In this document: in pieces, positions 15,298-48,852 of the stretch
Layout: each line of letters opens with the position of its first letter
Numbering within the stretch: the first letter of the stretch is position 1
Source of the DNA: Eubacteriales bacterium
Lineage (GTDB): Bacteria; Bacillota; Clostridia; Oscillospirales; CAG-272
Length of the DNA stretch: 64,000 nt
Direction: 5' to 3'
Assembly (NCBI GenBank): GCA_018383975.1
Contig: JAHAZT010000041.1
Location: 21,638-85,637, forward strand
Position numbers and translations under genes: made by a program
The notes under the pieces: generated by a model
The model's database searches: none
What the model was told of the DNA's origin: nothing
Seen by the model: the letters and a program-made list of their open reading frames with translations, nothing else

Positions 15298-15543
15298 ATG
15301 CTTCTCTCCTCTCTTCCGTTCAATAAAAAACACACGCAAGATTACTTTACCGCAAAAACCTTCGTTTGTCAATATCGGCGGCGATGATATTTTCCGTTTT
15401 GCAAAGTATCTTCCCTGCGCCGACATCGGCTTCTTCCGTAAAATTATATCAGAGAAATGCGCAAAATGTCAACACGGGGCTTGTAAAACCGGCAGACAGG
15501 TGATAAAATAGAATAAAGCAAAAACTCGGAAAAGGAGAATCTC

Positions 15544-17562: not shown

Positions 17563-17587
17563 ATTTCAAGTTCTTCCGCTTTTATCA

Positions 17588-17672
17588 ACCCGCGCCGCAG
17601 GCGCACCTTTTCTCTTCGATCTTCTCTCTTATCTCTTATCTCAAAAAAGCCCCGCCGAAGCGGGGCTTTTTG
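17588..17672 (+). repeat. dispersed intergenic repeat copy 1: small hairpin + pyrimidine-rich tract + bidirectional intrinsic terminator
   Basis: ..gcgccgcaggcgcaccttttctcttcgatcttctctcttatctcttatctcaaaaaagccccgccgaagcggggcttttt. Near-identical copies at 49911-49995 and 31308-31373. Confidence 0.9.
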
Positions 17673-17676
17673 CTTT

Positions 17677-18777
17677 TTACTGTATTGTTTCGCTGTTGTT
17701 GAGAACGAGCGTGCTGTAAAGGAAGAGGACATCGCTGCCTTCAAAATTTACAAACCTGCCGAGATAATCCGGAACAATATAACGTATATCGACAAGAGTT
17801 ATCTTTGCGTAACCCTCAACGAGAAGCGGAGATATGCTGCTTCCGAAGGAGTCACGGAAAATGATAAGCTCTTTGTCCGTCTTTGCGTTCGGATTTTCGA
17901 TGGTCATAAGCGATATTGAGCCGGAAAGGAACATCTGATACGGGTCTTTTCCATAGGCTTTTTCCATATCGTATACGGTTGTTTTCTTGCCCGTTTCATA
18001 GTTTGTGACTATGCAGTTATCAAGAATATCGCTTGTGAGATATTTAATCGTTTCCGAGGGCATGGGAAGTGCCGCCTGACCGTAATAAACGCCGTAAAAG
18101 GGATTGTCAAGTGTGTTTTCCCTGTACTGTCCCGAAAGGCTGGCGCCCATTCCCTTTGCAAGGGCTGCCGCAGTTTCAAGCAGCTTTTCCTGTCTCCAGT
18201 GAGTATCCGTTTTATAGTAATCGGAAATTTCAAGCGTGTTCATTATGTCTATATACTGCGCATATGACATTTTATCCTTCATTTCGGAGACGAGCTTTTC
18301 GTAATCCATTTTGAGATAGCCGCCCTTGTCGGCAAGGAAATAACTCTTATCCGGTACTATGGAGAGATAAACGTTTGAAGCCTTGCCCTCCATATATTTT
18401 TTATAGACGTATTCAAATCTGCTTGCCGCATATGCAATCGACTTGTCGTTGAGCGGATATTCAATCTTTGCCGCATAGCCGTCTTTTATATAAATTCCGT
18501 TGTTGTCAAGCTGACGGAAAACGTAATAGCTCGTCAGCGCTTTGAGCGTCCTGAACTGTTCTCTCAGCGGGAACTGATCCTGCGTGTATTTTTCAAACTT
18601 CGTCATAAACGAGCCGTTGAGCAGAGCTTTAAGCTCCGGCTTCGGAAGCTGCGCAAGGTCTCTGCGCTCGCTGTCCGAATATTTCTTTGCGGGTATCGCC
18701 CAACAGCCTATGACAGTCGTCACAAAGAACGCGGCAATTATCACAAAAGAAATTATACTTTTTGTTTTGTTATTCAT
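17677..18777 (-). CDS. DHHW family protein (AlgX/AlgJ-like SGNH-type, predicted acyl-transfer partner of MBOAT)
   Basis: N-terminal TM and the motif KTDTHW (a DHHW variant). Lies immediately downstream of the MBOAT gene. Start set at MNNKTK (GGAGGTG RBS). Confidence 0.7.
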   Translation of the reverse strand: MNNKTKSIISFVIIAAFFVTTVIGCWAIPAKKYSDSERRDLAQLPKPELKALLNGSFMTKFEKYTQDQFPLREQFRTLKALTSYYVFRQLDNNGIYIKDGYAAKIEYPLNDKSIAYAASRFEYVYKKYMEGKASNVYLSIVPDKSYFLADKGGYLKMDYEKLVSEMKDKMSYAQYIDIMNTLEISDYYKTDTHWRQEKLLETAAALAKGMGASLSGQYRENTLDNPFYGVYYGQAALPMPSETIKYLTSDILDNCIVTNYETGKKTTVYDMEKAYGKDPYQMFLSGSISLMTIENPNAKTDKELIIFRDSFGSSISPLLVEGYAKITLVDIRYIVPDYLGRFVNFEGSDVLFLYSTLVLNNSETIQ

Positions 18778-18790
18778 AATATCACCTCCG

Positions 18791-20197
18791 TCAGAAGCGG
18801 AAATAGAGGAACGGATTGTATGACCCGTCAACAAGGCACGCCGTGCATATCGCAAGCAACACGCAGAGGGCAACCGGTGCAAGCACCGTCATTATCTTGC
18901 CGCCGACGCGACTTTCGTTTATCTTGCCGACAACGAGCTTCGGAAGCGGCGTCGAGCCGATCATCGCGAGCAGGATTACAACTCCGTAGCTGCGCAGATA
19001 GTAAACAAATTCAGTCGAGACAAGCGGATAGCCGCCCGCGCCGAACATCGAACCTATATAAGAGAATGCGTCCTTCATGCTTGCCGCATCGAATATAACA
19101 AAGCTGATTATGACAAGCAACAGCACGTAAATATGGTTCAGCACCTTGCTCTTTTTCAGGTATTTAAGCAGGAACAGCTTTTCTATCATCAGTATGATTG
19201 CAAAATACAGTCCCCAGATGATGAAGTTCCAAGCCGCCCCGTGCCACATTCCGGTCAGCATCCAGACAACGAAAATATTAAAGAAATGTCTTGCCTTGCC
19301 GACTCTGTTTCCGCCGAGCGGAATATAAACATAGTCGCGGAACCATGAGCCGAGCGACATATGCCATCTGCGCCAGAACTCCGTAACGCTGCCCGAAATA
19401 TAAGGATAATTGAAGTTTTCAAGGAAGTCAAAGCCGAATATTTTTCCGAGTCCGATTGCCATATCGCTGTAACCGGAGAAGTCGAAATAGATATGAAGCG
19501 TATATGCTATGGCATAAAGCCAGAAGAAAAGAACGGATTTATCGCCGGAACCCTTGAAAGTATCGCAAAGCTCGCCGAGGAAGTTTGCAATGAGAATTTT
19601 CTTTGAAAGTCCGATGATGAAGCGGCTCATTCCCGCAGATATCTTTTCAAATGAGTGATTGCGGTTTCTCAGCTGCTCCGCTATATCGGAGTAACGGACA
19701 ATCGGTCCCGCAATAAGCTGCGGGAAAAGCGCAACATAGGTTGCGAGGTCAATCGGGTTTTTCTGCGCCGCAACGTCGCCTCTGTAAACGTCAACGGTAT
19801 AGCTTAAAATCTGGAATGTATAGAAGCTGATGCCGACGGGAAGCGCGATTTTGAGAAGCGGAATGGAAAGTCCGGTCACCGCGTTGATATTTGAAATGAA
19901 GAAGTCCGCATATTTGAAATAGCCGAGTACGGCAAGACTGCTGGTAACGGAAAGAACCAGAAACAACTTTGCAAGGCCGTGATTTTTTTCTCTGTACTTT
20001 TCAATCAGAAGTCCGAAAAGATATCCGAGTCCGATAGAAAGCACCATCCATATAACATACTTTGGCTCGCCCCACGCATAAAATACAAGGCTCGAAAGGA
20101 GAAGAACCGTGTTTTTGAGAAAGCGCGGCGCAATCAGATATAAAAGTATTACACACGGTAAAAAGTAATACAAAAACGGAATGCTTGAAAATAACAT
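18791..20197 (-). CDS. MBOAT family O-acyltransferase (AlgI/DltB-like)
   Basis: Polytopic protein with FYAWGEPKY, SFYTFQ, GYSDMAIG and WRRWHMSLGSWFRDYVYIPLGGNR (conserved MBOAT His region). Confidence 0.9.
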   Translation of the reverse strand: MLFSSIPFLYYFLPCVILLYLIAPRFLKNTVLLLSSLVFYAWGEPKYVIWMVLSIGLGYLFGLLIEKYREKNHGLAKLFLVLSVTSSLAVLGYFKYADFFISNINAVTGLSIPLLKIALPVGISFYTFQILSYTVDVYRGDVAAQKNPIDLATYVALFPQLIAGPIVRYSDIAEQLRNRNHSFEKISAGMSRFIIGLSKKILIANFLGELCDTFKGSGDKSVLFFWLYAIAYTLHIYFDFSGYSDMAIGLGKIFGFDFLENFNYPYISGSVTEFWRRWHMSLGSWFRDYVYIPLGGNRVGKARHFFNIFVVWMLTGMWHGAAWNFIIWGLYFAIILMIEKLFLLKYLKKSKVLNHIYVLLLVIISFVIFDAASMKDAFSYIGSMFGAGGYPLVSTEFVYYLRSYGVVILLAMIGSTPLPKLVVGKINESRVGGKIMTVLAPVALCVLLAICTACLVDGSYNPFLYFRF

Positions 20198-30576: not shown

Positions 30577-31149
30577 ATGGAAATCAAACGCAAATCAATG
30601 TCAGACGAGCAGCTTTCCGCCCGTGAAAACGAGCTTATCGCGGAGGTAAACGCCGTCTGCGACGGCTATCGTGACCGTTTTTCCTTCCTCGGCTACGAGC
30701 TTAACGTTGAAATCGACGAAAAGAAAGCCGATGATTACGAATTCTCTCCCCGCAAGGACGGAGAGGAACACAAGCCCGAATACGTTTCCGGCTATGCATG
30801 CCGCGCGACCGTAACGGTCAGACGTCCGAAGAGCGACGACGAAATGAAGCAGGACGCAGAACTTGAAGAAGAGCTTTCCGCGGCGGAAAAGGAATACTCC
30901 GAAAAGGTTGACGAGGGCGGAGAATGCGGTATAGACGAGCAGCTCGCCGAGCAGGAAAGAGCCGACGCCATCCTTGCCGACGCAGAGGACAAGCTCAATC
31001 GCAGCGTTGCGTATACCCAGCTTATGCTTATAAGAATATACAAGGCGTTCTGGATTGAAAAGGTCAGCATTTGCGAAAACACCGACGAGCTTAAAAACGA
31101 CCTTGACGAATTCTATAACAAGCTCGCCAAAGGAGAAACCGAGGAATAA
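30577..31149 (+). CDS. acidic hypothetical protein
   Basis: A 190-aa ORF with an RBS (aaagga). Glu/Asp-rich coiled-coil-like middle. No family recognised. Confidence 0.55.
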   Translation: MEIKRKSMSDEQLSARENELIAEVNAVCDGYRDRFSFLGYELNVEIDEKKADDYEFSPRKDGEEHKPEYVSGYACRATVTVRRPKSDDEMKQDAELEEELSAAEKEYSEKVDEGGECGIDEQLAEQERADAILADAEDKLNRSVAYTQLMLIRIYKAFWIEKVSICENTDELKNDLDEFYNKLAKGETEE

Positions 31150-31199
31150 CCTTCTTTTCTTCGAGAAGAAAAGAAGGCAAAAGAAGCTTCAGTTATCGG
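31150..31199 (-). repeat. perfect 12-bp-stem palindrome plus inverted copy of the 'ccgataa' module
   Basis: ccttcttttctt-cgag-aagaaaagaagg directly after the stop. The reverse complement ccgataactgaagcttcttttgccttcttttcttc matches 5384-5421. Confidence 0.8.
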
Positions 31200-31248
31200 T
31201 GACGATATGCAGATTTTTAATATAGCCTTCTCCAGTAGGGATTTGCGA

Positions 31249-31281
31249 GTGTGCGAAGCACACTTGCAGGCGTCGCCGAGA
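31249..31281 (+). repeat. 33-nt conserved block, copy B
   Basis: gtgtgcgaagcacacttgcaggcgtcgccgaga, 32/33 identical to 5196-5228. Confidence 0.85.
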
Positions 31282-31307
31282 CGGGGTCGGAAACCGCGGA
31301 GCGGTTC

Positions 31308-31373
31308 GTTTCTCTTCGATCTTCTCTCCTCTCTTTTATCTCAAAAAAAATCCCCGCCGGAGCGGGGATTTTT
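31308..31373 (+). repeat. dispersed intergenic repeat copy 2 (pyrimidine-rich tract + terminator)
   Basis: tttctcttcgatcttctctcctctcttttatctcaaaaaaaatccccgccggagcggggattttt. The outer stem pair changes from g-c to t-a relative to the other copies (compensatory). Confidence 0.9.
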
Positions 31374-31380
31374 ATTGCTT

Positions 31381-32238
31381 TTATACTCCCGAATAAGCGG
31401 CAAATCCGCCGTCAATCGGAACGACAACGCCGTTTACAAAGCCCGATGCGCCGTTATCGCAGAGCCAGAGGAGAGTGCCTGTCAGGTCGTCGACCTCGCC
31501 GAACCTGCCCATGGGCGTATGTGCGAGAATTTTCTCGCTTCTCGGAGTCAGCGAGCCGTCGGCGTTCATAAGCATACCGCGGTTCTGATTTGTAACAAAA
31601 AATCCGGGGGCGATCGCGTTGACTCTTATGCCGACCTTCGAGAAATGTACGGCAAGCCACTGCGTAAAGTTCGATACAGCCGCCTTTGCGCCGGAATACG
31701 CGGGGATTTTCGTCAGCGGACGGAAGCTGTTCATCGACGAAACGTTAAGTATCACAGAGCCTGCCTTTTTCGCCATATCGCGCGCAAAGACCTGTGTGGG
31801 AAGAAGCGTTCCGAGGAAGTTGAGATTGAAAACGAATTCAACGCCCTTGGGGTCGAGGTCAAAGAAAGTAACAAGGTCTTCTCCGCCGTCGATATCCTCC
31901 GGAAAGAGATATTCTTTTGTCGTTGTGCCCTTGGGGTTGTTGCCGCCCGCACCGTTGAGAAGTATATCGCATGTGCCGAGCTCCGCATTGATTTTTTCTC
32001 TTGCCGCCATAAGGCTCTCTTTGTCAAGCACGTTTGCTTCAACGGCGATTGCCTTACCGCCGTCCGCGTTTATTCTGTCCGCAACTGCCTGTGCGGGTTC
32101 AAGACGGAGGTCACATACAGCAACCTTTGCGCCGCAAGCCGCAAGTGCTTCCGCAAAGCCGGAGCAAAGCACACCGCCGCCGCCCGTCACAACGGCGACC
32201 TTTCCCGCAAGGTCAATTCTGAAAGGAAGTTTAACCAT
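31381..32238 (-). CDS. SDR family oxidoreductase
   Basis: VVTGGGGVLCSG Rossmann motif, NGAG, and S..Y(SGAK) catalytic residues. ATG 32238 is preferred (AAAGGAG 9 nt upstream) over TTG 32244. Confidence 0.85.
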   Translation of the reverse strand: MVKLPFRIDLAGKVAVVTGGGGVLCSGFAEALAACGAKVAVCDLRLEPAQAVADRINADGGKAIAVEANVLDKESLMAAREKINAELGTCDILLNGAGGNNPKGTTTKEYLFPEDIDGGEDLVTFFDLDPKGVEFVFNLNFLGTLLPTQVFARDMAKKAGSVILNVSSMNSFRPLTKIPAYSGAKAAVSNFTQWLAVHFSKVGIRVNAIAPGFFVTNQNRGMLMNADGSLTPRSEKILAHTPMGRFGEVDDLTGTLLWLCDNGASGFVNGVVVPIDGGFAAYSGV

Positions 32239-32257
32239 TTTCAATTTCTCCTTTATC

Positions 32258-32911
32258 TCATTTGATTTTCTTTATCGTATCGTAAATATCGCACGGGCGG
32301 TCGACTGTTATATCCGCGCCCGAGGCGATAAGTATTTCTTTTTCGCGATAACCCCATGTTGCCCCGACGGCAACCATTTCCGCATTCTTTGCGGTTTTCA
32401 TATCGACATCCGAATCGCCGACAAAAGCGCACTCCGACGGACTTGCGCCGAATTTTTCCGCAAGGTAAAGCGCGCCCTCCGGACTCGGCTTTCCGGGAAA
32501 TCTTCCCGTGCCGAGAATCTCCTCAAAAACCTCGCTGCCGTACAGCTTTTTGACAATGTCGTTTGCGTGGTCGTTATCCTTGTTTGTGAACACCGCAAGC
32601 GGGAGCCCGTCCGCGCGGAGCTTTGAAAGCGTCTCCGCCATACCGTCATACGCTGTTGTGTTGTGAAGATAGCACTGACTGTACTCGTTCAGATATATCT
32701 CTTTCGCCTTGCCGTAATATTCGTCGCTCTGCCCTTCCGGAAAGGAATTGCGTATGAACTGATCCGTCGTGCCGTTTATAAACGAAAGAAGGTGCTTTCT
32801 CGTCACAGGGGGAAGCCCGTATCTCGCTCTTGCGCGATTCATTCCTTCTGTAAGATCCGGAAGTGTGTATGCAAGCGTGCCGTCCAGATCGAAAATAACA
32901 GCTTTTATCAT
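32258..32911 (-). CDS. HAD family hydrolase (phosphoglycolate phosphatase-like)
   Basis: FDLDGTL motif I, TNK motif II and GDSDVD motif IV. AGGAGG RBS. Confidence 0.85.
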   Translation of the reverse strand: MIKAVIFDLDGTLAYTLPDLTEGMNRARARYGLPPVTRKHLLSFINGTTDQFIRNSFPEGQSDEYYGKAKEIYLNEYSQCYLHNTTAYDGMAETLSKLRADGLPLAVFTNKDNDHANDIVKKLYGSEVFEEILGTGRFPGKPSPEGALYLAEKFGASPSECAFVGDSDVDMKTAKNAEMVAVGATWGYREKEILIASGADITVDRPCDIYDTIKKIK

Positions 32912-32993
32912 AATTCTGCCTCCTGCGACAATCGCTTTAATGATTTTATCAGCATTTGAGGCATTTGTCCATAGTTTTCTTCATTTTTTTGCG

Positions 32994-33022
32994 TTGACTT
33001 TATATATTTACTGTGTTAAAAT
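32994..33022 (+). promoter_or_regulatory. sigma-A-type promoter upstream of the PPTase gene
   Basis: TTGACT, 17 nt spacer, TAAAAT, preceded by a TGt extended -10. Confidence 0.5.
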
Positions 33023-33107
33023 GTTCTTTGTGTATCAATAGGCGGCGCAAGCCGCAAAAAAGAACGGACGGAGGACAGCGCGCTTTTTTGCGTGTCGAAA
33101 GATAAAA

Positions 33108-33770
33108 ATGAGTTTTGTAAAGGTTTTTTATGCGGACGTCTCCGCTTATTATGACGAAAACGCTCTCGCCGAAAGGAAGGCGGAGGTATCTGCCGATCGG
33201 CAGAGCCGTATCGACCGCGCAAAACGTCCGGAAACGAAAGCTCTTCTCCTCGGCTCCGGACTGATCGTCCCCGTCGCGCTGAAAAAGGTTTTCGGCGATT
33301 TTGATTATGAAATCAAGGTAACGGAAATGGGCAAGCCCTACGTTTCAAATCGCGACGGCGTGTTTTTCAGCGTGTCGCATACGGGAAAATACGTGCTCTG
33401 TGCCGTTTCGGATACCGAAGTCGGCGCCGACCTTGAGGAAATTGCCGAGGCACAGACCGTTATGCCCATTGCGGACAGATTTTTCACTCCGCTCGAACGT
33501 GACGCAATCAGCCTCAGCCCGTCGCCCGCAGAAGCCTTCTGCCGACTGTGGACGCTGCGCGAAAGCTACGTAAAAATGACGGGAAAAGGCTTTGACCGCG
33601 GTCTTGCGCCGCTTGCCATGGTGTTTCCCTCCGGCACGCCGAAGATAAAAGTCGACGGAAAAATCCTTGAAAACGTATTCTTCACGGAAATCCGCGACGT
33701 TTATATGTGTCGCGGCGCAGTATGCACGGAAAAGGAAGCCGGATATTCCATTGAAAAAATAACTCTCTGA
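33108..33770 (+). CDS. 4'-phosphopantetheinyl transferase (Sfp type)
   Basis: FFSVSHTGKYVLCAVS..VGADLE and FCRLWTLRESYVKMTGKG motifs. Confidence 0.85.
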   Translation: MSFVKVFYADVSAYYDENALAERKAEVSADRQSRIDRAKRPETKALLLGSGLIVPVALKKVFGDFDYEIKVTEMGKPYVSNRDGVFFSVSHTGKYVLCAVSDTEVGADLEEIAEAQTVMPIADRFFTPLERDAISLSPSPAEAFCRLWTLRESYVKMTGKGFDRGLAPLAMVFPSGTPKIKVDGKILENVFFTEIRDVYMCRGAVCTEKEAGYSIEKITL

Positions 33771-33786
33771 AAAAGGTGACGGGTTT

Positions 33787-34236
33787 ATGAGACTTGAATT
33801 CGGAATAGGAGCCTGCGGAATTCTTTTCGGAATGACGCCGAAGGACGTTGTGAGCGCCCTCGGCATGCCGGATAAGATAAACGTCTGCGAGGACGACGAA
33901 ATATACGGGCAGACTTATATTTATAATCGCGATATGCTTATGGTATGGTTTGAGCGCGAAAAGGATATGCGCGTGACGCTGATACAATGCTTTTCCCCCG
34001 AAATGACGGTCTTCGGGAAAAAGGTTTTCCTGCGCGAAAAGGACGAGGTTATGAAGCTGATAAAATCCGCGGGGTGCAGCCGTTTCACGGAAAACGACGG
34101 CCCGACGGAGGAAACCGTCTTCTTCGATGATATCGCCGCCTGGTTCAATTTTGAATTCGGCAAGCTGTCGTATGTGGAGCTCGGCGTGTTCTTCAACGAA
34201 ACGACCGGCGAGGAAATCTGGAGCTTCGGAGAATAA
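33787..34236 (+). CDS. hypothetical protein
   Basis: A 149-aa ORF with balanced composition, followed by a strong terminator. The overlapping antisense ORF 33682-34386 has junk-like composition. Confidence 0.55.
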   Translation: MRLEFGIGACGILFGMTPKDVVSALGMPDKINVCEDDEIYGQTYIYNRDMLMVWFEREKDMRVTLIQCFSPEMTVFGKKVFLREKDEVMKLIKSAGCSRFTENDGPTEETVFFDDIAAWFNFEFGKLSYVELGVFFNETTGEEIWSFGE

Positions 34237-34248
34237 AATTTCGGATAT

Positions 34249-34279
34249 GCGGGTTGCGGAAGCAACCCGCGCTTTTTTT
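34249..34279 (+). terminator. intrinsic terminator
   Basis: gcgggttgc-ggaa-gcaacccgc followed by gcttttttt. Confidence 0.8.
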
Positions 34280-34347
34280 GTAAAAAACAAATTTTCCCGC
34301 CCATATTTTTCACGTCCGGACAGAATAATAAAAATAAAAAGGTTTTT

Positions 34348-35790
34348 ATGGATATTTACGAAAGCAAAAAGGAAGAATTCCGTCAACGGTTTGAAAAAAT
34401 GTCCGATCTTTCCGTCCGTGAGTTTTGCTGCGGAAGGCTGCGGATATGCATTTTTTATATTTCAAACTTCTGCTCCAAAAATATGATAGCGGAGCAGATT
34501 ATAAACCCGCTTTCCGCCGCATACGGCAGAGAGGGCAACGCTTTTTCCGTCGAAAGCTCGATTGCCTCCGCTTCCCTGTCAATTCTCGGCAGCGGCGACG
34601 AAGCCGAGGAAAGTCTTCTCGCCGGCTCCGCCGTTTTGATGTATGACGGCTCTCCCCGCTATGCGCTTTCCGTCGGCACGAAGAACGAAGAAGGACGCTC
34701 CGGAAACGAGCCGGACACGGAAAACGTCATAAGAGGTCCGCACGAGGGCTTTACCGAAAACGGCGAGTCGAACGCAATGCTCATTCGCCGTCGACTGCAC
34801 ACGGCAAAGCTGAAAAAGCTGAATTTTTCCGTCGGGACGTTATCAAAAACGGACGTTTCAATAATGTATATAGAAGGAATTGCGCGGGAAAAACTTGTTT
34901 TTGAGGTGGTGCGACGGATAAAAAATACAGATGTTGCAACCGTCACGGACTCCGGCATGATAGAGCTTTGTATTCAGGACGGGAAATATGCGCTTTTCCC
35001 CACCGTCGGAAATTCCGAGCGGCCGGACAAGGTTGCCGCCAAACTGACGGAGGGTCGCGTTGCGATAATCGTCGACGGATCGCCCGTCGTGCTTACGGTA
35101 CCGTATCTTTTCTGCGAGGGCTTTCAGGTTACGGAGGACTACGCAAAAAGTCCGTGGTATGCGGGTTTTGTCCGTATTCTGCGCCTTGCGGCAATGGCGA
35201 TATCCGTCTGGCTGCCGGCGGTTTTCACGGCAATTCTGACGCATCACGAATATATGGTTCCGCCTGCCACGCTGAACGTCATAAGCGAGTCCCGAAAGGG
35301 ACTTGCAACCCCCATTTTTTCAGAGGTCATCATCGTTTTTCTCCTGTTTGAGCTTGTGCGCGAGGTCGGGCTGCGAATGCCGAAGGCGGTCGGGTCGGCG
35401 GTCGGAATTGTGGGTGCGCTCCTCCTCGGCGACAGCGCGATCGAAGCGGGGATTGCTTCGTCGTCCGTGCTGATAATCGTTGCGCTTGCAGCACTTTGTA
35501 ATTTTATCATTCCGCCGTATATGAATCCCTCCGTCATTTACAGATTTATAATGGTCCTTCTTGCGGGATTTTTCGGGCTTTACGGATTTTTCATCGGATT
35601 TGTCTGCGGTGTGCTTGCCCTTGCGGGAAAAAGCTCATTCGGCACGCCGTATCTTTCGCCGATCGCACCGATTTCACCGGAGGGCATGAAGGATTTCCCC
35701 ATAATGACCTCCGTCTCTCAGATGAAAATCGCACCGGTGTCAATCACGGGAAAACGTATAAAAAGAACGGGAAAGGAGAAGGAAAAATGA
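34348..35790 (+). CDS. spore germination protein, GerA family A subunit
   Basis: Soluble N-terminal domain with IRRRLHTAKLK..SKTDVSIMYIEGIA, and a C-terminal 5-TM region typical of GerAA/GerKA. Confidence 0.85.
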   Translation: MDIYESKKEEFRQRFEKMSDLSVREFCCGRLRICIFYISNFCSKNMIAEQIINPLSAAYGREGNAFSVESSIASASLSILGSGDEAEESLLAGSAVLMYDGSPRYALSVGTKNEEGRSGNEPDTENVIRGPHEGFTENGESNAMLIRRRLHTAKLKKLNFSVGTLSKTDVSIMYIEGIAREKLVFEVVRRIKNTDVATVTDSGMIELCIQDGKYALFPTVGNSERPDKVAAKLTEGRVAIIVDGSPVVLTVPYLFCEGFQVTEDYAKSPWYAGFVRILRLAAMAISVWLPAVFTAILTHHEYMVPPATLNVISESRKGLATPIFSEVIIVFLLFELVREVGLRMPKAVGSAVGIVGALLLGDSAIEAGIASSSVLIIVALAALCNFIIPPYMNPSVIYRFIMVLLAGFFGLYGFFIGFVCGVLALAGKSSFGTPYLSPIAPISPEGMKDFPIMTSVSQMKIAPVSITGKRIKRTGKEKEK

Positions 35791-36596
35791 CTCTTTCAAG
35801 AGGACTTACCTCCCGCCAGCTTTTCTTCGTCTCCGCCGCATATCTCTTCTCCGGATTTTTTGTTTTCCGCACGCGCGGCGTTTCCGTTATGGTGACGGTT
35901 TTCCTTTTGTGGTCGCTGTTTTCGGGCATTGCGTTTATGATGAAGCACCGTGAAAGGGCATCCTTTGTCCGTCGCATATTCCGCATAATTTTCGCCATAT
36001 GCTCCGCCGTCACAGCCTCATGCGACGTCTTTTCGCTCTTTAATTTTTCCGCAGTCGACAAAAGCGGCGTTCCGCCGCTCGTGTTTACATTTTCGCTCGT
36101 CGCAATCGCCGTTTTTCTCGCGTATAAAATAAAGCTCGTGGGCAGGCTTGCGGAGTTGACGCCGTATATTTTCGCGGCGGTGCTGCTGACCGCCGTACCG
36201 TATATGAAGGCATCGCTTTCGCTATTTGACGGCAGTTCCCTCTCCGTTTTCTTTTTCCCATCCGTACCGCTTCTGCTCTGCGATGAGTCACGCAATACGA
36301 CAGAACACCCCTCCGCCTTTCTCTCTGCGGAAAAAAGCGGACTTCATCCGCTGCTTTCGTCAATGCTCGGCGCACTTGTCGGAACACTTCTCTATATACC
36401 GTTTTCCGCCGCCGACAGCGCAAAAAACGGGCTCATCTCCGTTTTCGTCTGGACGCTTTTTCTCATTCGCCTCTCTGCGGACCTGTTCTCCGCAGTCCGG
36501 CTTTGCAAAGAAAAGGACGGCTTTCTGCCGACAGTCGCCTTTGCCTCCTTTGTGTTTGTTTCCTTTGCCGTAATATCAAAAAATCCCCTTTTGTGA
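35787..36596 (+). CDS. polytopic membrane protein, possibly a short GerAB-like germinant receptor B subunit
   Basis: ATGA overlap with the GerAA gene. N-terminal LTSRQLFFV resembles the GerAB start. Only 269 aa, whereas typical B subunits are about 360 aa. Confidence 0.45.
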   Translation: MTLSRGLTSRQLFFVSAAYLFSGFFVFRTRGVSVMVTVFLLWSLFSGIAFMMKHRERASFVRRIFRIIFAICSAVTASCDVFSLFNFSAVDKSGVPPLVFTFSLVAIAVFLAYKIKLVGRLAELTPYIFAAVLLTAVPYMKASLSLFDGSSLSVFFFPSVPLLLCDESRNTTEHPSAFLSAEKSGLHPLLSSMLGALVGTLLYIPFSAADSAKNGLISVFVWTLFLIRLSADLFSAVRLCKEKDGFLPTVAFASFVFVSFAVISKNPLL

Positions 36597-36612
36597 GGGG
36601 ATTTTTCAGTCA

Positions 36613-37515
36613 TTATATCAGCCTTATGAAGAGCTTTATCGCCGTGCCGTCCGGATATTCCTTCACCTCGCCGACACCGATAAAGCCGTCTTTTGTATAT
36701 ATCTTCACCCGCTCGCCCAAGTCAAAGCGCGTGCCGATTTTCTTCTGATAAATTTCACAGCCCGAAAGGCAAAGCCTTGCATAAAAATCTGGCAGGCTGA
36801 CGCTTTCAAGATCGGAGAAAAGGTTTTCAGCGGGGATGAGACGAGCCGTCCGTTCCTCCGGAGAAAAATCTTCAAGCTCTTCCGGCGTCACAGCGTCGTC
36901 AAGCGTGAAGCCCCCGGAAGAATATCTGCAAAGTGCGCTCATGGTTGCGCCGCAACCGAGCCTCTTGCCGATGTCCTCGCAAAGCGTGCGTATATACGTT
37001 CCTTTGGAGCAGGCAACCCGCATTTTATACGTGTCGCCTTCGCCGTCAATATCAATCGACGATATGAAAAGCTCCCTCGGCGCAAGCTCAACGGTTTTTC
37101 CCTCGCGGGCAAGCTCATACAGTTTTTTCCCGTCGACCTTTATCGCGCTGTACATAGGCGGCACCTGCATATATCTGCCGGTAAAGCTCTTCGCCGCAGA
37201 AATGACTTCATCCCTCGGCGGAATGTTTTCACTGCGCGACATGACGTTCCCCGTTATGTCCGCTGTGTCCGTCACGATTCCGAGCTTCATCTCCGCATCG
37301 TATATCTTGTCCTGCGCGGTGACATAGTCGGAAGCTTTGACGGCTCTGCCGACAAGGATTATAAGCAGCCCCGTTGCCATCGGGTCAAGGGTTCCCGTAT
37401 GCCCGACGCTCCGCGTCCCGTAAAGACGTCGGATCTTGGAAACCGCGTCGTGCGAGGTTATCCCTTTTGGCTTATTCAGCAGCAGTACCCCGCCCCTCGA
37501 TATCTCATTTTTCAA
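36613..37515 (-). CDS. truB: tRNA pseudouridine(55) synthase
   Basis: LLLNKPKGITSHD and HTGTLDPMATGLL motifs. TTG start 7 nt after AAGGAG. Confidence 0.93.
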   Translation of the reverse strand: MKNEISRGGVLLLNKPKGITSHDAVSKIRRLYGTRSVGHTGTLDPMATGLLIILVGRAVKASDYVTAQDKIYDAEMKLGIVTDTADITGNVMSRSENIPPRDEVISAAKSFTGRYMQVPPMYSAIKVDGKKLYELAREGKTVELAPRELFISSIDIDGEGDTYKMRVACSKGTYIRTLCEDIGKRLGCGATMSALCRYSSGGFTLDDAVTPEELEDFSPEERTARLIPAENLFSDLESVSLPDFYARLCLSGCEIYQKKIGTRFDLGERVKIYTKDGFIGVGEVKEYPDGTAIKLFIRLI

Positions 37516-38485
37516 AGCCGCACTCCTTGATTATTTTGTCTACCGTTTCGTCGACGTCGCCTTCCGCAACGCTGCAACCGGCTGCGCCGGCATGACCTCC
37601 GCCTCCGAACATTGCGCAGATTTTTGCCATGTCGATATCCCCCGTCGACCTTGTTGATATTTTATATACGCCCGGCGTTCTTTCCCTTGCCAGAATGGCA
37701 ACCTTTACCCCTTCAACACGCCTTATGACGTTTATAACGTCGTATGTGTCCTCGTCCTCAAAGCCGCACCGCTCCTTATCCGCCTCGGTTATTCTGACAT
37801 AAGATATTTTTCCGCCGCAGAGATATTTCACGTTTTCCATGGCAAACGCCTCTGCCGCAAGCGCGGTTTTACTCTTCATTTCAAAGAGGTTGCGGCATAT
37901 CTGGAAGTGGTTTGCTCCGCACTCAATCAGTTTTGCCGCGATTTTGTGAGTATACGGGGTTGTATTTGCATAACGGAAACCGCCGGTGTCCGCCGCAAGT
38001 GCGGCATACAGAAGCGACGCCGTTTTTTCGGGAATTTTACCCTGTATCATACGGTTTATGACTCTGTATATTATCTCTGCGCAGGCTCCCGCTCCGGAGT
38101 CCACAAATCTGTAACACGCAAGGTCATCATGACACGAATGATGGTCAAGCGCAAGGTCTATCTTGGCGGCGAGATAATGATATTTTCCGAGCTGGTTCGG
38201 CGAAGCAATGTCAACGGAAATAAGAAATTTCGGCGTGAAGTCGCCCGGCAAATCCTCAATTCCGAAGCAACGCTCGCCGTCTGTCAGAAACATAAGCGAC
38301 TGCGGAATTTTATCACAGCAAGCCATATACGCCCGCTTTCCGACGGAACGGAGCGTCAGCACGAGCGCAAGTGCCGAGCCGATCGTATCCGAATCGGGAT
38401 TTTCGTGCATAAAAACAAGAAAATTATCGTTTCTTTCAAGCACCTTGCGTATGCCGTTTATCGTTATGTTATTGCTCGCCGTCAC
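37505..38485 (-). CDS. nrnA: DHH family phosphoesterase (NrnA-type bifunctional oligoribonuclease/pAp phosphatase)
   Basis: HENPDSDTIGS, DHH and GGGGHAGAAG (DHHA1) motifs. GTG 38485 (AAAGGAG RBS) is preferred over ATG 38506. Confidence 0.85.
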   Translation of the reverse strand: MTASNNITINGIRKVLERNDNFLVFMHENPDSDTIGSALALVLTLRSVGKRAYMACCDKIPQSLMFLTDGERCFGIEDLPGDFTPKFLISVDIASPNQLGKYHYLAAKIDLALDHHSCHDDLACYRFVDSGAGACAEIIYRVINRMIQGKIPEKTASLLYAALAADTGGFRYANTTPYTHKIAAKLIECGANHFQICRNLFEMKSKTALAAEAFAMENVKYLCGGKISYVRITEADKERCGFEDEDTYDVINVIRRVEGVKVAILARERTPGVYKISTRSTGDIDMAKICAMFGGGGHAGAAGCSVAEGDVDETVDKIIKECGFEK

Positions 38486-38858
38486 CTTCGTTCTCCTTTT
38501 CATCATCGGACGTGACGCCCGTCTTTTTCAGAAGTTCAAAAATATCCGCGCCGCGCTTTATCGCGTCGTCATATTCAAAATTGAATTCGGGTGTCGCGCG
38601 CATATTAAGCGTTTCCGCAACGGTATGACGTATAAATCCCGCCGCGCTGTACAGTCCCTTTTTAATCTCTTTTATTTTTTCCGCGTCCGCTCCGTAAACG
38701 GAAAAATATACTTTTGCATATTTCAAATCGCCCGAAACGTCGCAATGAGTGACCGTTATCATCTCGCCCGCCACTCTCGGATCCTTGACGGAGCGTATCG
38801 CCTGTGCCACAACCCGTCCGACCTCATCGTTTACGCGCGCTCTTCTGTATTTTGCCAT
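38469..38858 (-). CDS. rbfA: ribosome-binding factor A
   Basis: RARVNDEVGRVVAQAI..VKDPRV..ITVTHCDVSGDLKYAKVYFSV is the RbfA core. Start set at MAKYRR. Confidence 0.9.
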   Translation of the reverse strand: MAKYRRARVNDEVGRVVAQAIRSVKDPRVAGEMITVTHCDVSGDLKYAKVYFSVYGADAEKIKEIKKGLYSAAGFIRHTVAETLNMRATPEFNFEYDDAIKRGADIFELLKKTGVTSDDEKENEGDGEQ

Positions 38859-38969
38859 AATGATTTTTCCTTTCAAAGCAATGCGATATTTTTACGCATA
38901 TATTATATCACAGCTCCGCCTCAAATGACAAGATTTTTTTGAAAAGAGAGTAAAGAAATAATCAAACGA

Positions 38970-38998
38970 TTGACAGTATCCTTTTTCCGTGATATAAT
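38970..38998 (+). promoter_or_regulatory. consensus sigma-A promoter of the TerB_N/DUF2791 operon
   Basis: TTGACA (38970-38975), exactly 17 nt spacer, TATAAT (38993-38998) with TGa extended -10. GGAGG RBS before ATG 39036. Confidence 0.65.
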
Positions 38999-39035
38999 TA
39001 TATGATACAAAATAAAGTTAAAGGAGGTCGCGCAC

Positions 39036-40652
39036 ATGGCAAAAAGTATCGGCACAAACGATGATTTCCGGACGTTGTCCGAGCTTGTCCCCAAAAAAAC
39101 ATACATAAAAAAGCCAATGCACGACACCTCCTCCGTAACTGTTGATACCGGTGACGCCGAAAGCATCGGCTCACCTGTTCCGTTCCCCGAAAAACGCCCG
39201 CCTGTCCGTGCAAGGGAGAGTGTTTCATATTCTCCCCGTCATTCGCTTATAAATGACGTCACGCTGGAGGCCTGGCCGGGGAATTTCTCGTTCTATTCAA
39301 AATTTCATTTTGAAGCGGTAAAGCTGTTTCCCGTCGAGGGAAAGCCATGCCCGCCGGAAAGATTTTTTGCATACACTCCGCAATACGAGCAGCTTTCTCA
39401 ATGTCAGCTTGAATATTATCTTTATTTCAGAACGCTCGTCCGCGGCGGAGAGTATCCCGCGGTCGACAGCAGTTATATTTTTCTCCTGCTTTATGAGATT
39501 ATAAACCTTCCCGAGCTTATTCCCGCCGAAAAGGGTGCGGAGATGATTGTGCGGCTATGGAAGGCATACAGAGGCACTTATCCCTATCTTGACAAATATA
39601 TCGGCGAATGGCTTTGCGACTATTGTCTTATCCATCGGCTTCCGCCGCCCGTTTCCGTTGCGGATTTTTGCGGCGAGGTGATACAGAAGCTGTCATTTCC
39701 CGAATTTTACGAAGACCCGCAGAGCGATGCATTCTCATTTGAGTCCGTTGCGCGATTTTCCTCGTGTGACTATAAAAAAAGCCGTTTTTACGATGCAAAC
39801 AGGACCGAATATGACCGTCACATTCCGGCGGCGGCAACGCTCGCGGTAAAGACGTTTCTTTCGGGCGATGTTCCGCAAGGATTTCTCATAGTATCACACG
39901 ACCTGCGCGACAGTTTTCCGGGCGCAGTTGCATATGTCGGCGTGAAATACAAAATCAAAATCACTTCCCTTTCCCTGCGGAAAAGCAGAGAATATCATCA
40001 GCTCTGCTCGACCGTAATCAAGGCTTGCGAAAACGAGCTTCGTGCCGCAAAGGGAATAAAATCGCGCTATTCCGCGCAGTCGCTTCCCGAAATATGCAGA
40101 ACCGCGATTGCGGAATATTTTGACGGCTTCTATCCCGACCGCCGCGCAAAAAGAAAAGCCGATACATCGGATGACGACGCCCCCTATATGCGTTACTATA
40201 TGCCGCGCCGGATCGGCTCCGCCGATATAGGCCGCGCCATGCGCATTGAAAAATCCGCATGGAAAACGGCAATGCTGCTTGAATCGGAAACGGAGGAAAC
40301 ACCTGTGCCGGAAACGCATGGCGCGCCTCCCTCGCCGCAGAGCGGCGAGGCGGCGCGGCGCGAAAGCGAGGCTCCCGCCGGCGAAGTCGGGAACGATATA
40401 CTTTCTCTCCTGCTGTCACTTGACGAAACTCTGGCAAAAGCAATCGCGGCTGCTGTCGGAGGCGAAATGAAAACGTACTGCAAGGAACATTCAATAATGC
40501 CGGAGGAAGCCGAAAGACTGATAAACGAAGCCGCTTTCGACTTCACCGGAGACATACTTATAGATGAAACGTTCGGTATTCCGGAGGAATATAAAGACGA
40601 TACGAAAAAAGCGCTCGATACCGCGCACATATCATACAAGGAGGAAAAATAA
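39036..40652 (+). CDS. TerB_N / TerB_C domain-containing protein (SngA-like)
   Basis: YEQLSQCQLEYYLYFRTLVRGGEYPAVDSSYIFLLLYEIINL matches the TerB_N signature. C-terminal LLSLDETL...EAERLINEAAFDFTGDILIDE matches the TerB_C signature. Confidence 0.75.
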   Translation: MAKSIGTNDDFRTLSELVPKKTYIKKPMHDTSSVTVDTGDAESIGSPVPFPEKRPPVRARESVSYSPRHSLINDVTLEAWPGNFSFYSKFHFEAVKLFPVEGKPCPPERFFAYTPQYEQLSQCQLEYYLYFRTLVRGGEYPAVDSSYIFLLLYEIINLPELIPAEKGAEMIVRLWKAYRGTYPYLDKYIGEWLCDYCLIHRLPPPVSVADFCGEVIQKLSFPEFYEDPQSDAFSFESVARFSSCDYKKSRFYDANRTEYDRHIPAAATLAVKTFLSGDVPQGFLIVSHDLRDSFPGAVAYVGVKYKIKITSLSLRKSREYHQLCSTVIKACENELRAAKGIKSRYSAQSLPEICRTAIAEYFDGFYPDRRAKRKADTSDDDAPYMRYYMPRRIGSADIGRAMRIEKSAWKTAMLLESETEETPVPETHGAPPSPQSGEAARRESEAPAGEVGNDILSLLLSLDETLAKAIAAAVGGEMKTYCKEHSIMPEEAERLINEAAFDFTGDILIDETFGIPEEYKDDTKKALDTAHISYKEEK

Positions 40653-41971: not shown

Positions 41972-44911
<2,940 letters not shown>

Positions 44912-44912
44912 C

Positions 44913-44948
44913 AAAAAAACAACGCCTCCCGCGGAGGCGTTGTTTTTT
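44913..44948. terminator. bidirectional intrinsic terminator
   Basis: aaaaaaacaacgcctcc-cgc-ggaggcgttgtttttt between the convergent lacZ and yitT-like genes. Confidence 0.85.
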
Positions 44949-44951
44949 ATA

Positions 44952-45824: not shown

Positions 45825-45985
45825 TTTGTCCTCTGAAAAAATTCTGTTGGAAGTATTTTATCACAACCGTTTGGGTTTGTAAACACTTTGTCCGTTTTTA
45901 AGTGTTTTTTTCGAAAACTGTGGACATATCCGTAAAAGATTTGTATAATTGAATCGTAAAACAAAAAGAAAGGCTTTTTATCCTT

Positions 45986-47620: not shown

Positions 47621-47634
47621 ATTTCAGGCGCTTC

Positions 47635-48027: not shown

Positions 48028-48155
48028 CCGTAACCTCTCGTTGTTTTCGTATCTGCGGATGAAAATCCGCCCGATTGTTTATTGCACATTGTTTTCTCGT
48101 TCCCGTTGCCTGCGGGAATACCCGAACCACTTTCATCGGTCATAACGTTAAACGT

Positions 48156-48186
48156 AATCCGCATCGCTCGTATGCGGATTTTTTAT
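48156..48186 (+). terminator. hairpin with canonical T-run on the plus strand, overlapping the TetR stop
   Basis: aatccgcat-cgctcgt-atgcggatt followed by ttttattt on the plus strand. On the minus strand it is followed only by acgtttaacgtt. Confidence 0.55.
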
Positions 48187-48731: not shown

Positions 48732-48852
48732 TGCACAAACTTCCTTAACAAAACATTTACAAAGATAATCAACACCGCCCGAACGGCTGTCGGGTATCTT
48801 TCAGATTCACAAAAGCTGACGGTTGTTATTTCTCTGTATTACTATTATACTG

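Follow-up and report, generated by a model that had tools for sequence, protein, structure and literature searches.

What is the short sequence that recurs at three gene ends of the 64-kb stretch of DNA analysed here (the window), and how did it come to stand there? An earlier note on this DNA had described three plus-strand copies and had proposed that they serve as rut-like Rho loading sites, as seeds of small RNAs derived from 3'UTRs or as a mobile terminator cassette of the REP/MITE kind. The copies, designated c17, c31 and c49 from their positions, are present where it had placed them, as confirmed by an exact 19-mer, TTCTCTTCGATCTTCTCTC, found at 17610, 31310 and 49934 (n=3 in the window). 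With up to three mismatches allowed, 0.07 matches were expected by chance from dinucleotide-preserving shuffles, and 0 of 100 shuffles reached three. A profile search of the whole window found no full copy beyond these three.

Architecture of the cassette

The element is a non-coding, modular, intergenic repeat of about 85-100 nt. Its parts follow in a set order: a T-run with an AT(C/A)AAYCC border, a mini-hairpin, ACC, a pyrimidine tract, A5-8, a G+C hairpin and T4-6 (Table 1). A border motif of the c17 type was found before the mini-hairpin at most paralogous sites. Coding potential was considered for the cassette and the inserts and was rejected, only short overlapping open reading frames without a convincing product being found.

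Table 1. Positions of the three copies, their neighbours and associated features in the window
Feature	Position	Strand	Remarks
Tract-like piece CTTCTCTCCTCTCTT, exact 15-mer of the c31 tract, then A-run	15298..15337	+	
c17 left border motif, TTTTATCAACCC	17580..17591	+	type T-run + AT(C/A)AA(T/C)CC
c17 mini-hairpin	17592..17604	+	GCGCC-GCA-GGCGC
c17 linker ACCTT and 33-nt tract	17605..17642	+	tract itself 17610-17642; C11 T18 A3 G1; 11 YC dinucleotides; predicted unpaired
c17 bidirectional intrinsic terminator (predicted)	17643..17671	+	A6, GCCCCGC-CGAA-GCGGGGC, T5
c17 abutting gene, DHHW-family protein	17677..18882	-	true start probably 18777
Segment bracketed by c31 and c49 (same orientation)	31141..49996	.	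18.85 kb
Other repeat modules upstream of c31	31150..31286	+	palindrome, one U-type unit, module B
Module B upstream of c31	31238-31286	+	
c31 mini-hairpin	31292..31306	+	AACCGC-GGA-GCGGTT
c31 pyrimidine tract	31310..31342	+	C12 T18 A2 G1
c31 bidirectional terminator (predicted)	31343..31373	+	A8, TCCCCGC-CGGA-GCGGGGA, T5
c31 abutting gene, short-chain dehydrogenase	31381-32244	-	stop 7 nt from T-run end
c49 plus-strand neighbour, epimerase gene	48901-49908	+	
c49 mini-hairpin	49916..49930	+	GTGC-CGCAGCC-GCAC; begins 8 nt past epimerase stop
c49 pyrimidine tract	49934..49966	+	C10 T19 A3 G1
c49 bidirectional terminator (predicted)	49967..49994	+	A5, GCCCCGC-CGAA-GCGGGGC, T5
c49 abutting gene, GdpP-like	49998-52040	-	stop 3 nt from T-run end

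The 33-nt CU-rich tract with a single G, as first described, holds in all three copies, and the change of the outer terminator pair of c31 from G-C to T-A is real (GCCCCGC/GCGGGGC versus TCCCCGC/GCGGGGA). The upstream mini-hairpin was likewise found in the two copies for which it had been reported, c17 and c49, but it is not limited to them, c31 having one of another sequence. The c31 type elsewhere comes after the first tract in tandem copies. The mini-hairpin, a perfect 13-nt palindrome, varies in sequence and has a G+C stem of 4-6 bp. Eight distinct sequences, nearly all self-complementary, were found across 12 sites, the variation being tabulated as distinct self-complementary variants; MAFFT places the hairpin types in different registers.

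All three copies are predicted to be terminator-like on both strands, with an A-run, a G+C hairpin and a T-run lying just past gene ends as in a bidirectional intrinsic terminator. Their stems share CCCCGC-CGRA-GCGGGG, a sequence unrelated to the stems of some ten further good bidirectional terminators in the window, and the terminator therefore belongs to the repeated unit. The predicted fold consists of a 5' hairpin, about 39 unpaired nucleotides and the terminator (z -4.1, -3.9 and -2.5), with -29.4 kcal/mol for the 89-nt c17 RNA (z -4.1). In addition, the mini-hairpin with its T-rich tail scores terminator-like by itself.

Sites and companion modules

The copies had been described as lying at convergent gene junctions, which is true of all three in the window and does not extend to the family as a whole. 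At 11 of 15 sites the tract, A-run, hairpin and T-run are followed by the stop codon of an opposite-strand gene, so that the constant feature is a terminator abutting an opposite-strand stop rather than convergence. At c17, for instance, 5 nt separate the end of the T-run from the stop codon of the DHHW gene on the minus strand, a gene whose true start probably lies at 18777 in view of homologues 366 aa long. The neighbour upstream of the cassette is variable, on either strand and 8-660 nt distant. At 3 or 4 sites the terminator is absent and a same-strand gene lies downstream, which implies that the tract and mini-hairpin also exist outside a terminator role.

The flanks of paralogous copies are unrelated, and the copies are thus not leftovers from a single duplicated gene end, a possibility that had been raised at the outset. 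Chance origin was ruled out by the shuffles, by these unrelated flanks and by the many additional sites.

The cassette is one module among several, which include a palindrome, tandem units of about 72 nt and modules B and c. Together these modules take up the intergenic spacers between one stop codon and the next. Upstream of c31, the palindrome CCTTCTTTTCTTCGAGAAGAAAAGAAGG stands directly past the stop of a 190-aa gene, and the modules seen there recur at 5082-5482 and in related loci. The ~72-nt units were considered as a CRISPR-like array and rejected, their "variable" halves being two recurring types and not unique spacers. A group II intron after the terminator, prompted by a minus-strand GGTGCG, was also rejected, with no Rfam intron match in the inserts of 500-750 nt. 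When the window was compared with Rfam, a tRNA was the sole match to pass the gathering threshold; a known RNA family was rejected for the cassette, which in E-value searches gave only sub-threshold matches to terminator-bearing models.

Distribution of the family

The wider search for copies that the earlier note had called for did find more sites, in related genomes and metagenomes. About 17 sites were found by genome and metagenome scans plus a profile search, all but one in human-gut Clostridia MAGs (UMGS660, UBA4653 and relatives). A scan of one genome per species across 185,579 species found further members in UMGS660 and UBA4653 only. Some 22 further loci came chiefly from human-gut metagenome assemblies, and the profile search added diverged copies. 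Viral contigs, phages and plasmids gave zero matches to the cassette, and an origin from a phage or plasmid was rejected on that result. The family is lineage-restricted and previously undescribed, while the kind of element is familiar. One near-identical tract was found in an unrelated organism of 38-43% G+C (locus L103), which suggests horizontal movement; recombination among resident copies would not by itself account for it.

Native terminators in relatives

At these junctions, two related species in which the gene order is the same have no family member and carry unrelated native terminators. In the first (L123-L125), the MBOAT-DHHW pair facing a small gene and a beta-lactamase is preserved, with a spacer of 47 nt and a terminator, AAAAAGGCACTGTAAAA-ACAA-TTTTACAGTGCC-T6, that ends 5 nt from the DHHW stop. 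In the second (L118-L122), the same GdpP C-terminus is followed by a different native terminator. No family member was found in the 19-21 kb of these two sets of loci. The cassette, its terminator included, thus stands in the place of the relatives' native terminators; the direction of replacement is deduced on the assumption that the latter are the ancestral state. Neither a target-site duplication nor a duplicated flank was seen at the two junctions that lack the cassette in relatives, and the presence of a native terminator where the cassette stands argues against simple insertion.

We consider it probable, with some reserve, that the repeat is a lineage-specific, BIME/BOX-like portable bidirectional terminator cassette spread by recombination or gene conversion. 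Spread and the likeness of copies would have come about through non-reciprocal recombination or gene conversion and not through cut-and-paste transposition.

A non-autonomous transposable element, either a MITE or a REP-like element served by a RAYT or an IS200/IS605-type enzyme, is an unlikely alternative in which a trans-acting transposase with a preference for gene ends would read the mini-hairpin and the adjacent ATCAA/TTGAT motif. It would account for expansion in one lineage with sister species devoid of the family, for the small perfect hairpin adjoining a conserved border motif, for the tract in the unrelated lower-G+C organism and for contigs that often end at or near copies. Nevertheless, inspection of aligned copies showed no terminal inverted repeats, the ends sharing T-run/A-run complementarity only, and no target-site duplication; at the two junctions for which relatives have a native counterpart, the native terminator is missing rather than pushed aside as by a simple insertion; the best-conserved part is internal and not terminal; and the scanned subset of window genes contained no transposase, RAYT (Y1 transposase) included. 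The genome material covered was the 64 kb of the window and pieces of 4-22 kb from relatives. Of the three roles first proposed, the mobile REP/MITE-like cassette nonetheless comes closest, in that the terminator is part of the unit, native terminators occupy its place in related species and the clade is narrow; what falls away is the label itself, there being no palindromic core, terminal inverted repeats or target-site duplication.

The pyrimidine tract

The tract spans 26-35 nt, with 0-1 G and 7-14 YC dinucleotides, and no pairing is predicted for it. Its 19-nt core is 97.5% identical among paralogues. It had been argued that such conservation far exceeds the need of a terminator; this does not follow, since the near-identity is found among paralogues in closely related genomes, where it is in line with gene conversion or a recent spread, and purifying selection on the sequence is not required to account for it. 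Instead of recent spread, a protein or RNA that reads the sequence specifically could be an explanation of the core. Between orthologues the picture is different: in the UBA4653 orthologue of c17 identity is 76% in the tract and about 86% in the flank, and the tract contains 0 G, as does that of a diverged subfamily. Composition is kept and sequence is not.

It is doubtful that the copies act as multicopy trans-acting C/U-rich small RNAs, either independent or cut from 3'UTRs, whose unpaired tract would serve as a seed for purine-rich ribosome-binding regions. The predicted architecture is typical of such RNAs, the single-stranded core is best conserved while the hairpins vary and mostly stay paired, and the plus-strand genes at c17 and c49 must carry the cassette as 3'UTR. 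As a lead only, 15 nt of the c31 tract are perfectly complementary to the Shine-Dalgarno region of the rhamnosidase-like gene on the minus strand (13255-15297), a region formed by the complement of the 15298-15337 piece, and the orthologous leader of this glycosidase gene at locus L072 is tract-complementary too. On the other side, complements of tract 11-mers in 245 kb are scattered and mostly intragenic, and the orthologous tract has diverged more than its flank, the opposite of what is expected of a seed. None of the three window copies has a sigma-70-type promoter, c49 begins 8 nt past a stop codon and the sequences upstream of the cassette are heterogeneous between sites. Some copies are terminator-less, tandem or in 5' leaders, and the family is entirely absent from sister species. 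Finally, CCUCC, the motif on which known Gram-positive anti-Shine-Dalgarno small RNAs rely, is missing from the consensus of the tract. With neither this motif nor a conserved promoter upstream, the small-RNA seed is the weakest of the three roles first proposed.

The border motif was also considered as a promoter and rejected, a TATAAT box being found in one upstream module type only and absent from the others and from c49. The 15298-15337 piece itself is either the relic of a copy or a low-complexity match that arose by chance; the related species that lacks the family has plain GGGGAAGGAGGG at its position. Any C/U-rich sequence pairs with purine-rich leaders.

Maintenance of composition without sequence is the pattern expected of a rut-like site, and a rut-like role, judged on composition and predicted structure, is compatible with the evidence. 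The Rho of B. subtilis prefers short, unstructured, pyrimidine-rich and G-poor sites of about 50-100 nt and terminates pyrimidine-rich antisense RNA (PMC12350095; PMC13323073). In its strongest form, which we hold to be quite improbable, this reading makes the tract primarily a selected rut site within a two-stage, intrinsic and Rho-dependent barrier to convergent read-through, repetition being secondary. The G-free, YC-rich, unpaired composition would fit these published properties (PMC12350095; PMC13323073), C/U-rich RNA arises at 11 of 15 sites only from transcription antisense into the abutting gene, and the coding strands of the window are modestly purine-rich (mean 0.518). However, the tract, at 26-39 nt, is shorter than the mapped sites of about 50-100 nt (PMC12350095), the strong intrinsic terminator directly after it leaves little room for Rho, and selection for a rut site leaves the mini-hairpin and the near-identical 19-mer unexplained.

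Probable recombination at the copies

When two sites of the window were compared with UMGS660, the abutting genes were mostly 98-100% identical, the left part of the cassette was 82-87% identical and the sequence further left was unrelated. Orthologous sites differ in mini-hairpin type, and two orthologues (L011 and L017) differ in terminator subtype. At another locus (L127) the cassette-type terminator is retained and the mini-hairpin and tract are absent. Some apparent chimeras could be products of misassembly at the repeat, for example L048, whose contig is 1 kb long.

The rearranged 18.85-kb segment that c31 and c49 bracket is absent at this junction in a related species, in which 110 nt separate the 190-aa gene from GdpP. 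It contains core genes (truB, a DHH phosphoesterase and gerA) and glycosidases, and no integrase or recombinase was found among its scanned genes. An integrase-bearing island was rejected on this gene content. Homology between copies would make them act as rearrangement breakpoints, as we propose for the portable terminator cassette.

Very improbable is a DNA-level binding or crossover site for a recombinase or a chromosome-organising protein, which would account for copies bracketing this rearranged segment, for homology with related strains that ends at the left edge of the cassette and for the shared orientation of 5/5 neighbouring pairs on one contig, but orientation is tied to the abutting gene and co-orientation is thus expected from gene-strand bias, no examined copy has a recombinase gene beside it, the conserved core lacks dyad symmetry and the monotonic GC skew of the window rules out a nearby replication terminus or origin.

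Proposed mode of action

In the reading as a portable bidirectional terminator cassette, the A-run, hairpin and T-run would terminate transcription from both sides, as their sequence predicts. The cassette would end the mRNA of the abutting gene and keep transcripts that come from the other side from entering that gene in antisense. The mini-hairpin with the U-rich stretch, itself terminator-like, may reinforce this barrier to incoming transcripts. The purine-free tract, which would pair with nothing nearby, may let the terminator hairpin fold regardless of the upstream sequence, and as a short, unstructured, G-poor and YC-rich RNA it would be of the type preferred by Firmicute Rho.

A joint and more speculative reading, to which we give little credence, makes the cassette a polar transcription insulator that propagates itself. 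Rho, or some other RNA factor that binds pyrimidines, would be recruited by the purine-free tract before the bidirectional hairpin. The portable unit would then merge intrinsic with factor-dependent termination, and it would take the place of native terminators through gene conversion and give rise to chromosomal rearrangements. Alternatively, tracts released from 3'UTRs would form a multicopy regulator of purine-rich ribosome-binding sites, of which that of the glycosidase gene at 15297 could be an example target.

Comparison with known systems

The REP and BIME sequences of enterobacteria are short, extragenic and lineage-specific, lie at gene 3' ends, often near stop codons, and form mosaics with other motifs; they can affect termination and mRNA ends and can be rearrangement substrates. 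The cassette resembles them in being short, extragenic and lineage-specific, in its placement at gene 3' ends and in its mosaics. On the contrary, its core is a non-palindromic tract and not an imperfect palindrome of 20-40 nt with GTAG/GTGG, its mini-hairpin has no GTAG head, it is present in about 10-20 copies per genome against hundreds for REP, and a complete intrinsic terminator is built into it, unlike in REP/BIME.

BOX elements of Streptococcus pneumoniae, where RUP and SPRITE are also found, are modular non-coding intergenic repeats that can fold as RNA and influence neighbouring genes. They share with the cassette a Gram-positive host, modularity and variable numbers of internal modules. 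The two have no sequence relation, the order of BOX is fixed as boxA-(boxB)n-boxC, and BOX has neither the built-in A-run, hairpin and T-run terminator nor the purine-free tract. Correia elements (NEMIS) and other MITEs are small, dispersed gene-end repeats that can carry in a terminator or a promoter and can mark the variable stretches lying between conserved genes. In Correia elements the terminal inverted repeats are 26 nt long and TA is duplicated; neither terminal inverted repeats nor a duplication were seen in the cassette, and relatives have a native terminator in its place. Ordinary bidirectional Rho-independent terminators have the same A-run, G+C hairpin and T-run between two gene ends. 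They are locus-specific, while cassette terminators are copies of one another with about 55 nt of additional conserved sequence upstream.

Among RNA regulators, LhrC1-5 of Listeria and the streptococcal csRNAs are likewise several paralogues per genome, of about 85-150 nt, with their own terminators and C/U-rich unpaired stretches, which in their case pair with ribosome-binding sites (PMC4132741). They have conserved regulated promoters and UCCC/CCUCC motifs; the cassette has neither a conserved promoter nor this motif in its consensus, and its tract, unlike their motifs, drifts between orthologues. Firmicute rut sites are similarly unstructured, pyrimidine-rich, G-poor and YC-rich. Mapped examples are non-repeated and mostly about 100 nt long, in contrast to a tract of 26-39 nt that stands immediately before an intrinsic terminator.

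Significance

To our knowledge, almost no intergenic repeats have been described in uncultured gut Clostridia. The cassette family, together with its companion modules, accounts for breaks in contigs and in synteny in MAGs of these bacteria. The family also provides a natural example of terminators that apparently gave way to a spreading cassette and did not evolve where they stand. If the tract neither improves termination nor recruits Rho, the family is one more lineage-specific selfish or neutral repeat. If it does either, the cassette would be a ready-made, context-insulated bidirectional terminator for the engineering of Clostridia and would offer a test in nature of the recent claims that short pyrimidine-rich anchors are read by Firmicute Rho.

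Structure and distribution of the cassette

Three same-orientation copies of an intergenic repeat had been claimed (c17, c31 and c49), and all were found in place and as described. They share the order G+C mini-hairpin, short linker (in most cases ACC and two further bases), pyrimidine tract, A-run, G+C hairpin and T-run, the tract being 33 nt long and in each copy made of C and T apart from a single G and two or three A. A scan of the window places the 19-mer TTCTCTTCGATCTTCTCTC at exactly three positions, all on the plus strand, against a chance expectation from shuffles of 0.07 matches with up to three mismatches permitted, and a profile of 18 family members detected no further full copy in the window. 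In the predicted RNA fold of each copy, about 39 unpaired bases separate a 5' hairpin from a strong terminator (z-scores -4.1, -3.9 and -2.5), and the cassette hairpins of the three copies are predicted to be terminator-like on both strands. About ten other good bidirectional terminators in the window have unrelated stems, whereas the three cassette terminators are variants of one sequence, and the terminator therefore belongs to the repeat.

An exact-match scan of one genome per species (185,579 species) returned 24 loci. Eight of these belong to the family: the MAG UMGS660 ("uncultured Eubacterium sp.") carries seven and Clostridiales UBA4653 carries one. The remaining 16 fall within genes of unrelated organisms and were dismissed as chance. 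When metagenome contigs were scanned with a slightly degenerate pattern, 88 stretches matched; about 22 belong to the family, and most of these come from human-gut assemblies. No matches were obtained in viral contigs, phage genomes or plasmids, and no Rfam family fits the cassette. The check for further copies proposed in the earlier note, made with these scans and the profile search, was thus positive, with about 17 distinct sites after de-duplication and grouping by flanks, among them tandem copies and a diverged subfamily whose tract is TTCTTTTCACTCTTCACTCTTCTCTCTTAACTC. Also counted among these sites is a hairpin-ACC-tract unit with about 31 of 33 tract bases of the family consensus in an organism of 38-43% G+C (locus L103), where a second tract, inverted and diverged, pairs with it as a long hairpin (-36 kcal/mol) beside a tRNA-Leu(GAG) gene. 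This unit suggests presence of the tract module beyond the clade, or its movement there.

Positions of cassettes, companion modules and other features (window coordinates unless a locus is named)
Feature	Locus	Positions	Remarks
c17	window	17592-17671 (+)	abuts DHHW protein gene
c31	window	31292-31373 (+)	abuts short-chain dehydrogenase gene
c49	window	49916-49994 (+)	abuts GdpP-like phosphodiesterase gene
Small plus-strand gene beside c17, tail	window	17539-17562	last ~8 codons
Segment ending in c31 and c49	window	31141-49996	18.85 kb
Tract-like piece	window	15298-15337	exact 15-mer of c31 tract, then A-run
Rhamnosidase-like gene	window	13255-15297
Hairpin-ACC-tract unit	L103	2936-3075
Repeat-module spacer	window	5082-5482	400 nt, non-coding, between two minus-strand genes
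Palindrome CCTACTTTTCTTTGAAAAGAAAAGTAGG	window	5405-5435, 5436-5466	tandem; palindrome lies directly 3' of neighbouring gene's stop codon
Module B, 45 nt	window	5188-5232, 31241-31285	91% identical
A+T-stemmed terminator-like hairpin	window	5325-5357	bidirectional
~72-nt units, tandem	L107; L069; L100; L072	3950-4200; 6280-6480; 5470-5680; 5095-5420	GGCAAAAGAAACTTCGGTTATCGGGGA + hairpin with TTTTAATT loop
Module c			companion repeat before ~190-nt module
~190-nt module, non-coding	L072; L065; L126 (UBA4653)	5420-5830; 1300-1710; RC of 11081-11808	GCTTTAAGATTCGA...GGTAAAGCCGACGTGGCAGA...GTACTTTCTTTTCAAAAAAGAAAGTAC; in L126 ~100-700 nt downstream of DHHW stop
TerB-N/TerB-C and BrxC/BrxD-type genes	window	39036-41971	adjoining
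Tandem paralogous genes	window	~8440-10075	repeats 8441-8580/9275-9414 and others, 71-79% identical
GTTGTTGT-type short repeats in series	window	20769-20878	within minus-strand ORF 20267-20965

Constant and variable features

The earlier note had placed every copy between convergent genes. This holds for the three window copies, which lie between plus- and minus-strand gene ends with 3-7 nt from the T-run end to the minus-strand stop codon, but not across the family: the neighbour on the other side stands on either strand, 8-660 nt away and sometimes with its own terminator-like hairpin, and convergence is not the constant feature. At 11 of 15 sites, the order is tract, A-run, hairpin and T-run, and an opposite-strand gene has its stop codon no more than a few bases further on. 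At three sites the usual terminator is missing and the repeat leads into the beginning of a gene on its own strand; one of these is a tandem pair immediately 5' of GGAGG-ATG. One more site carries a second mini-hairpin alone ahead of the opposite gene's stop. The three abutting genes of the window have no functional relation.

Paralogous sites share a mean pairwise identity of 97.5% in the 19-nt core, 86% over the whole tract, 72% in the terminator hairpin, 71% in the mini-hairpin and 49% in the left flank. Across twelve sites, mini-hairpins come in eight sequences and terminator hairpins in ten, nearly all self-complementary.

Probable replacement of native terminators and signs of recombination

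Orthologous loci at increasing distance were fetched with the proteins of two abutting genes. At the c17 junction of a well-sampled relative (L123-L125; DHHW 88% identical), gene order is kept on both sides and a native bidirectional terminator, AAAAAGGCACTGTAAAA-ACAA-TTTTACAGTGCC-T6, lies in the 47-nt spacer and ends 5 nt from the DHHW stop, a distance equal to that of the window cassette's T-run. At the c49 junction of the same relative (L118-L122; GdpP 92% identical), an identical GdpP C-terminus is followed by a different native terminator. No family members were found in the 21 kb of L123-L125, in the 19 kb of L118-L122 or, for the c49 junction, in more distant relatives (69-78% identical), and the companion repeat modules too are confined to the window's clade. 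Assuming that the relatives' state is ancestral, the cassette would replace a native terminator rather than sit beside one. The tail of the small gene beside c17, compared with L072, L127 and L123, varies by lineage (RNIAKTL*, KTVKGGSVT* and a third one ending ...TVN* in L123), and junction turnover thus extends into adjacent coding sequence.

At two sites compared with UMGS660, the abutting genes are mostly 98-100% identical, as against 82-87% for the left part of the cassette, and sequence further left is unrelated. Mini-hairpin type varies between genomes at all three orthologous sites (for example from GCGCCGCAGGCGC to CGCGCGGAGCGC in a c17 orthologue), and at another site the orthologues L011 and L017, from UBA4653 and UMGS660, differ in terminator subtype within identical flanks. 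In the relative L127, the c17 junction contains 410 nt of companion modules with a cassette-type terminator at the end, without mini-hairpin or tract, an arrangement suggestive of deletion between a pair of short CAAAAGCYCCGC repeats. One short contig (L048) fuses the left flank of a site to the right side of another, and this chimera may reflect either a true rearrangement or an artefact of assembly. Finally, two genes only 110 nt apart in L118 are separated in the window by a segment that ends in c31 and c49, one each and in equal orientation. Under the best-supported mechanism, spread by recombination, cassettes would mark rearrangement breakpoints as a by-product.

The segment between c31 and c49 contains the core genes truB, DHH phosphoesterase, gerA and phosphopantetheinyl transferase, as well as glycosidases; no recombinase was found among the genes scanned, an integrated element was rejected, and the segment was read as a rearrangement. 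Its content varies among strains of the clade, homology to L066 ending at 34236. In L100, 5.8 kb left of the cassette are not present in the window.

Companion modules and other features of the window

At c31 and in relatives, other repeats occupy the spacer next to the cassette, and such repeats also fill the spacer at 5082-5482. No convincing ORFs were found in these inserts, and the cassette is usually the final module, adjoining the abutting gene's stop. The 5082-5482 spacer, made wholly of repeat modules, also includes U-type units and a strong hairpin, GCGCCTCCCC...GGGGAGGCGC, and has no pyrimidine tract. Each array of ~72-nt units starts with a palindrome adjoining the neighbouring stop codon and ends in a truncated unit joined to the cassette mini-hairpin, whose surroundings resemble the unit's hairpin region; the unit has no Rfam match. 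Since the ~190-nt module recurs at two different junctions with ~75-80% identity, it could be a structured RNA.

Elsewhere in the window, the TerB-N/TerB-C domain protein and BrxC/BrxD-type ATPase (Pfam E = 8e-145) genes form a possible anti-phage defence pair. By synteny with L123, the tandem paralogues are two polysaccharide deacetylase genes, and the GTTGTTGT-type repeats would encode a low-complexity stretch.

Role of the pyrimidine tract

In the c17 orthologue of UBA4653, the tract is 76% identical against ~86% for the surrounding DNA, yet it has 0 G and only three A, and the diverged-subfamily tract is likewise G-free; composition is thus kept while sequence drifts. The pattern speaks against a base-pairing seed and for a role needing an unstructured, purine-poor stretch. 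A tract free of purines would find no pairing partner in its own sequence or in the C-rich 5' terminator arm, and the terminator hairpin would therefore fold regardless of upstream sequence. Together with the U-rich beginning of the tract, the mini-hairpin too is predicted to be terminator-like, and mini-hairpin and terminator may act as two tandem barriers against transcripts entering antisense of the abutting gene. As to the Rho site proposed earlier, Rho of B. subtilis favours short, unstructured, pyrimidine-rich, G-poor sites and chiefly ends pyrimidine-rich antisense RNA (PMC12350095; PMC13323073). The tract offers 7-14 YC dinucleotides and is 26-39 nt long, below the mapped Rho-site range, and a Rho-landing or insulating element is plausible from its sequence.

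An sRNA using the tract as a seed for Shine-Dalgarno regions, also proposed in the earlier note, is unlikely given this drift, and one lead is left to it: the glycosidase gene at 15297 has a Shine-Dalgarno region with a perfect 15-nt complement of the c31 tract. The complement of the tract-like piece there is the Shine-Dalgarno of this rhamnosidase-like gene, and a promoter-like site, TTGACA-17-TAAAGT, lies upstream. In L072 the orthologous leader likewise resembles the tract, and a relative without the family has plain GGGGAAGGAGGG there. The piece may be a relic copy, its purine strand turned ribosome-binding site, or a low-complexity coincidence.

Relation to known repeats

The nearest systems in behaviour are REP/BIME, the enterobacterial mosaic extragenic repeats, and pneumococcal BOX. 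The cassette differs from REP/BIME, BOX and MITE in having no palindromic core and, on inspection of the aligned copies, no terminal inverted repeats or target-site duplication, and its complete built-in bidirectional terminator is not a defining trait of any of them. Of the proposed REP/MITE-like mobile terminator cassette, a terminator within the unit stands and portability is best supported, but the likeness to REP/MITE in defining features does not. The family is real and previously undescribed, the kind of element being familiar, and it is filed as a dispersed intergenic repeat outside any named family. The best-supported mechanism, judged from sequence comparison, is that of a portable, predicted bidirectional terminator spread and homogenised by recombination.
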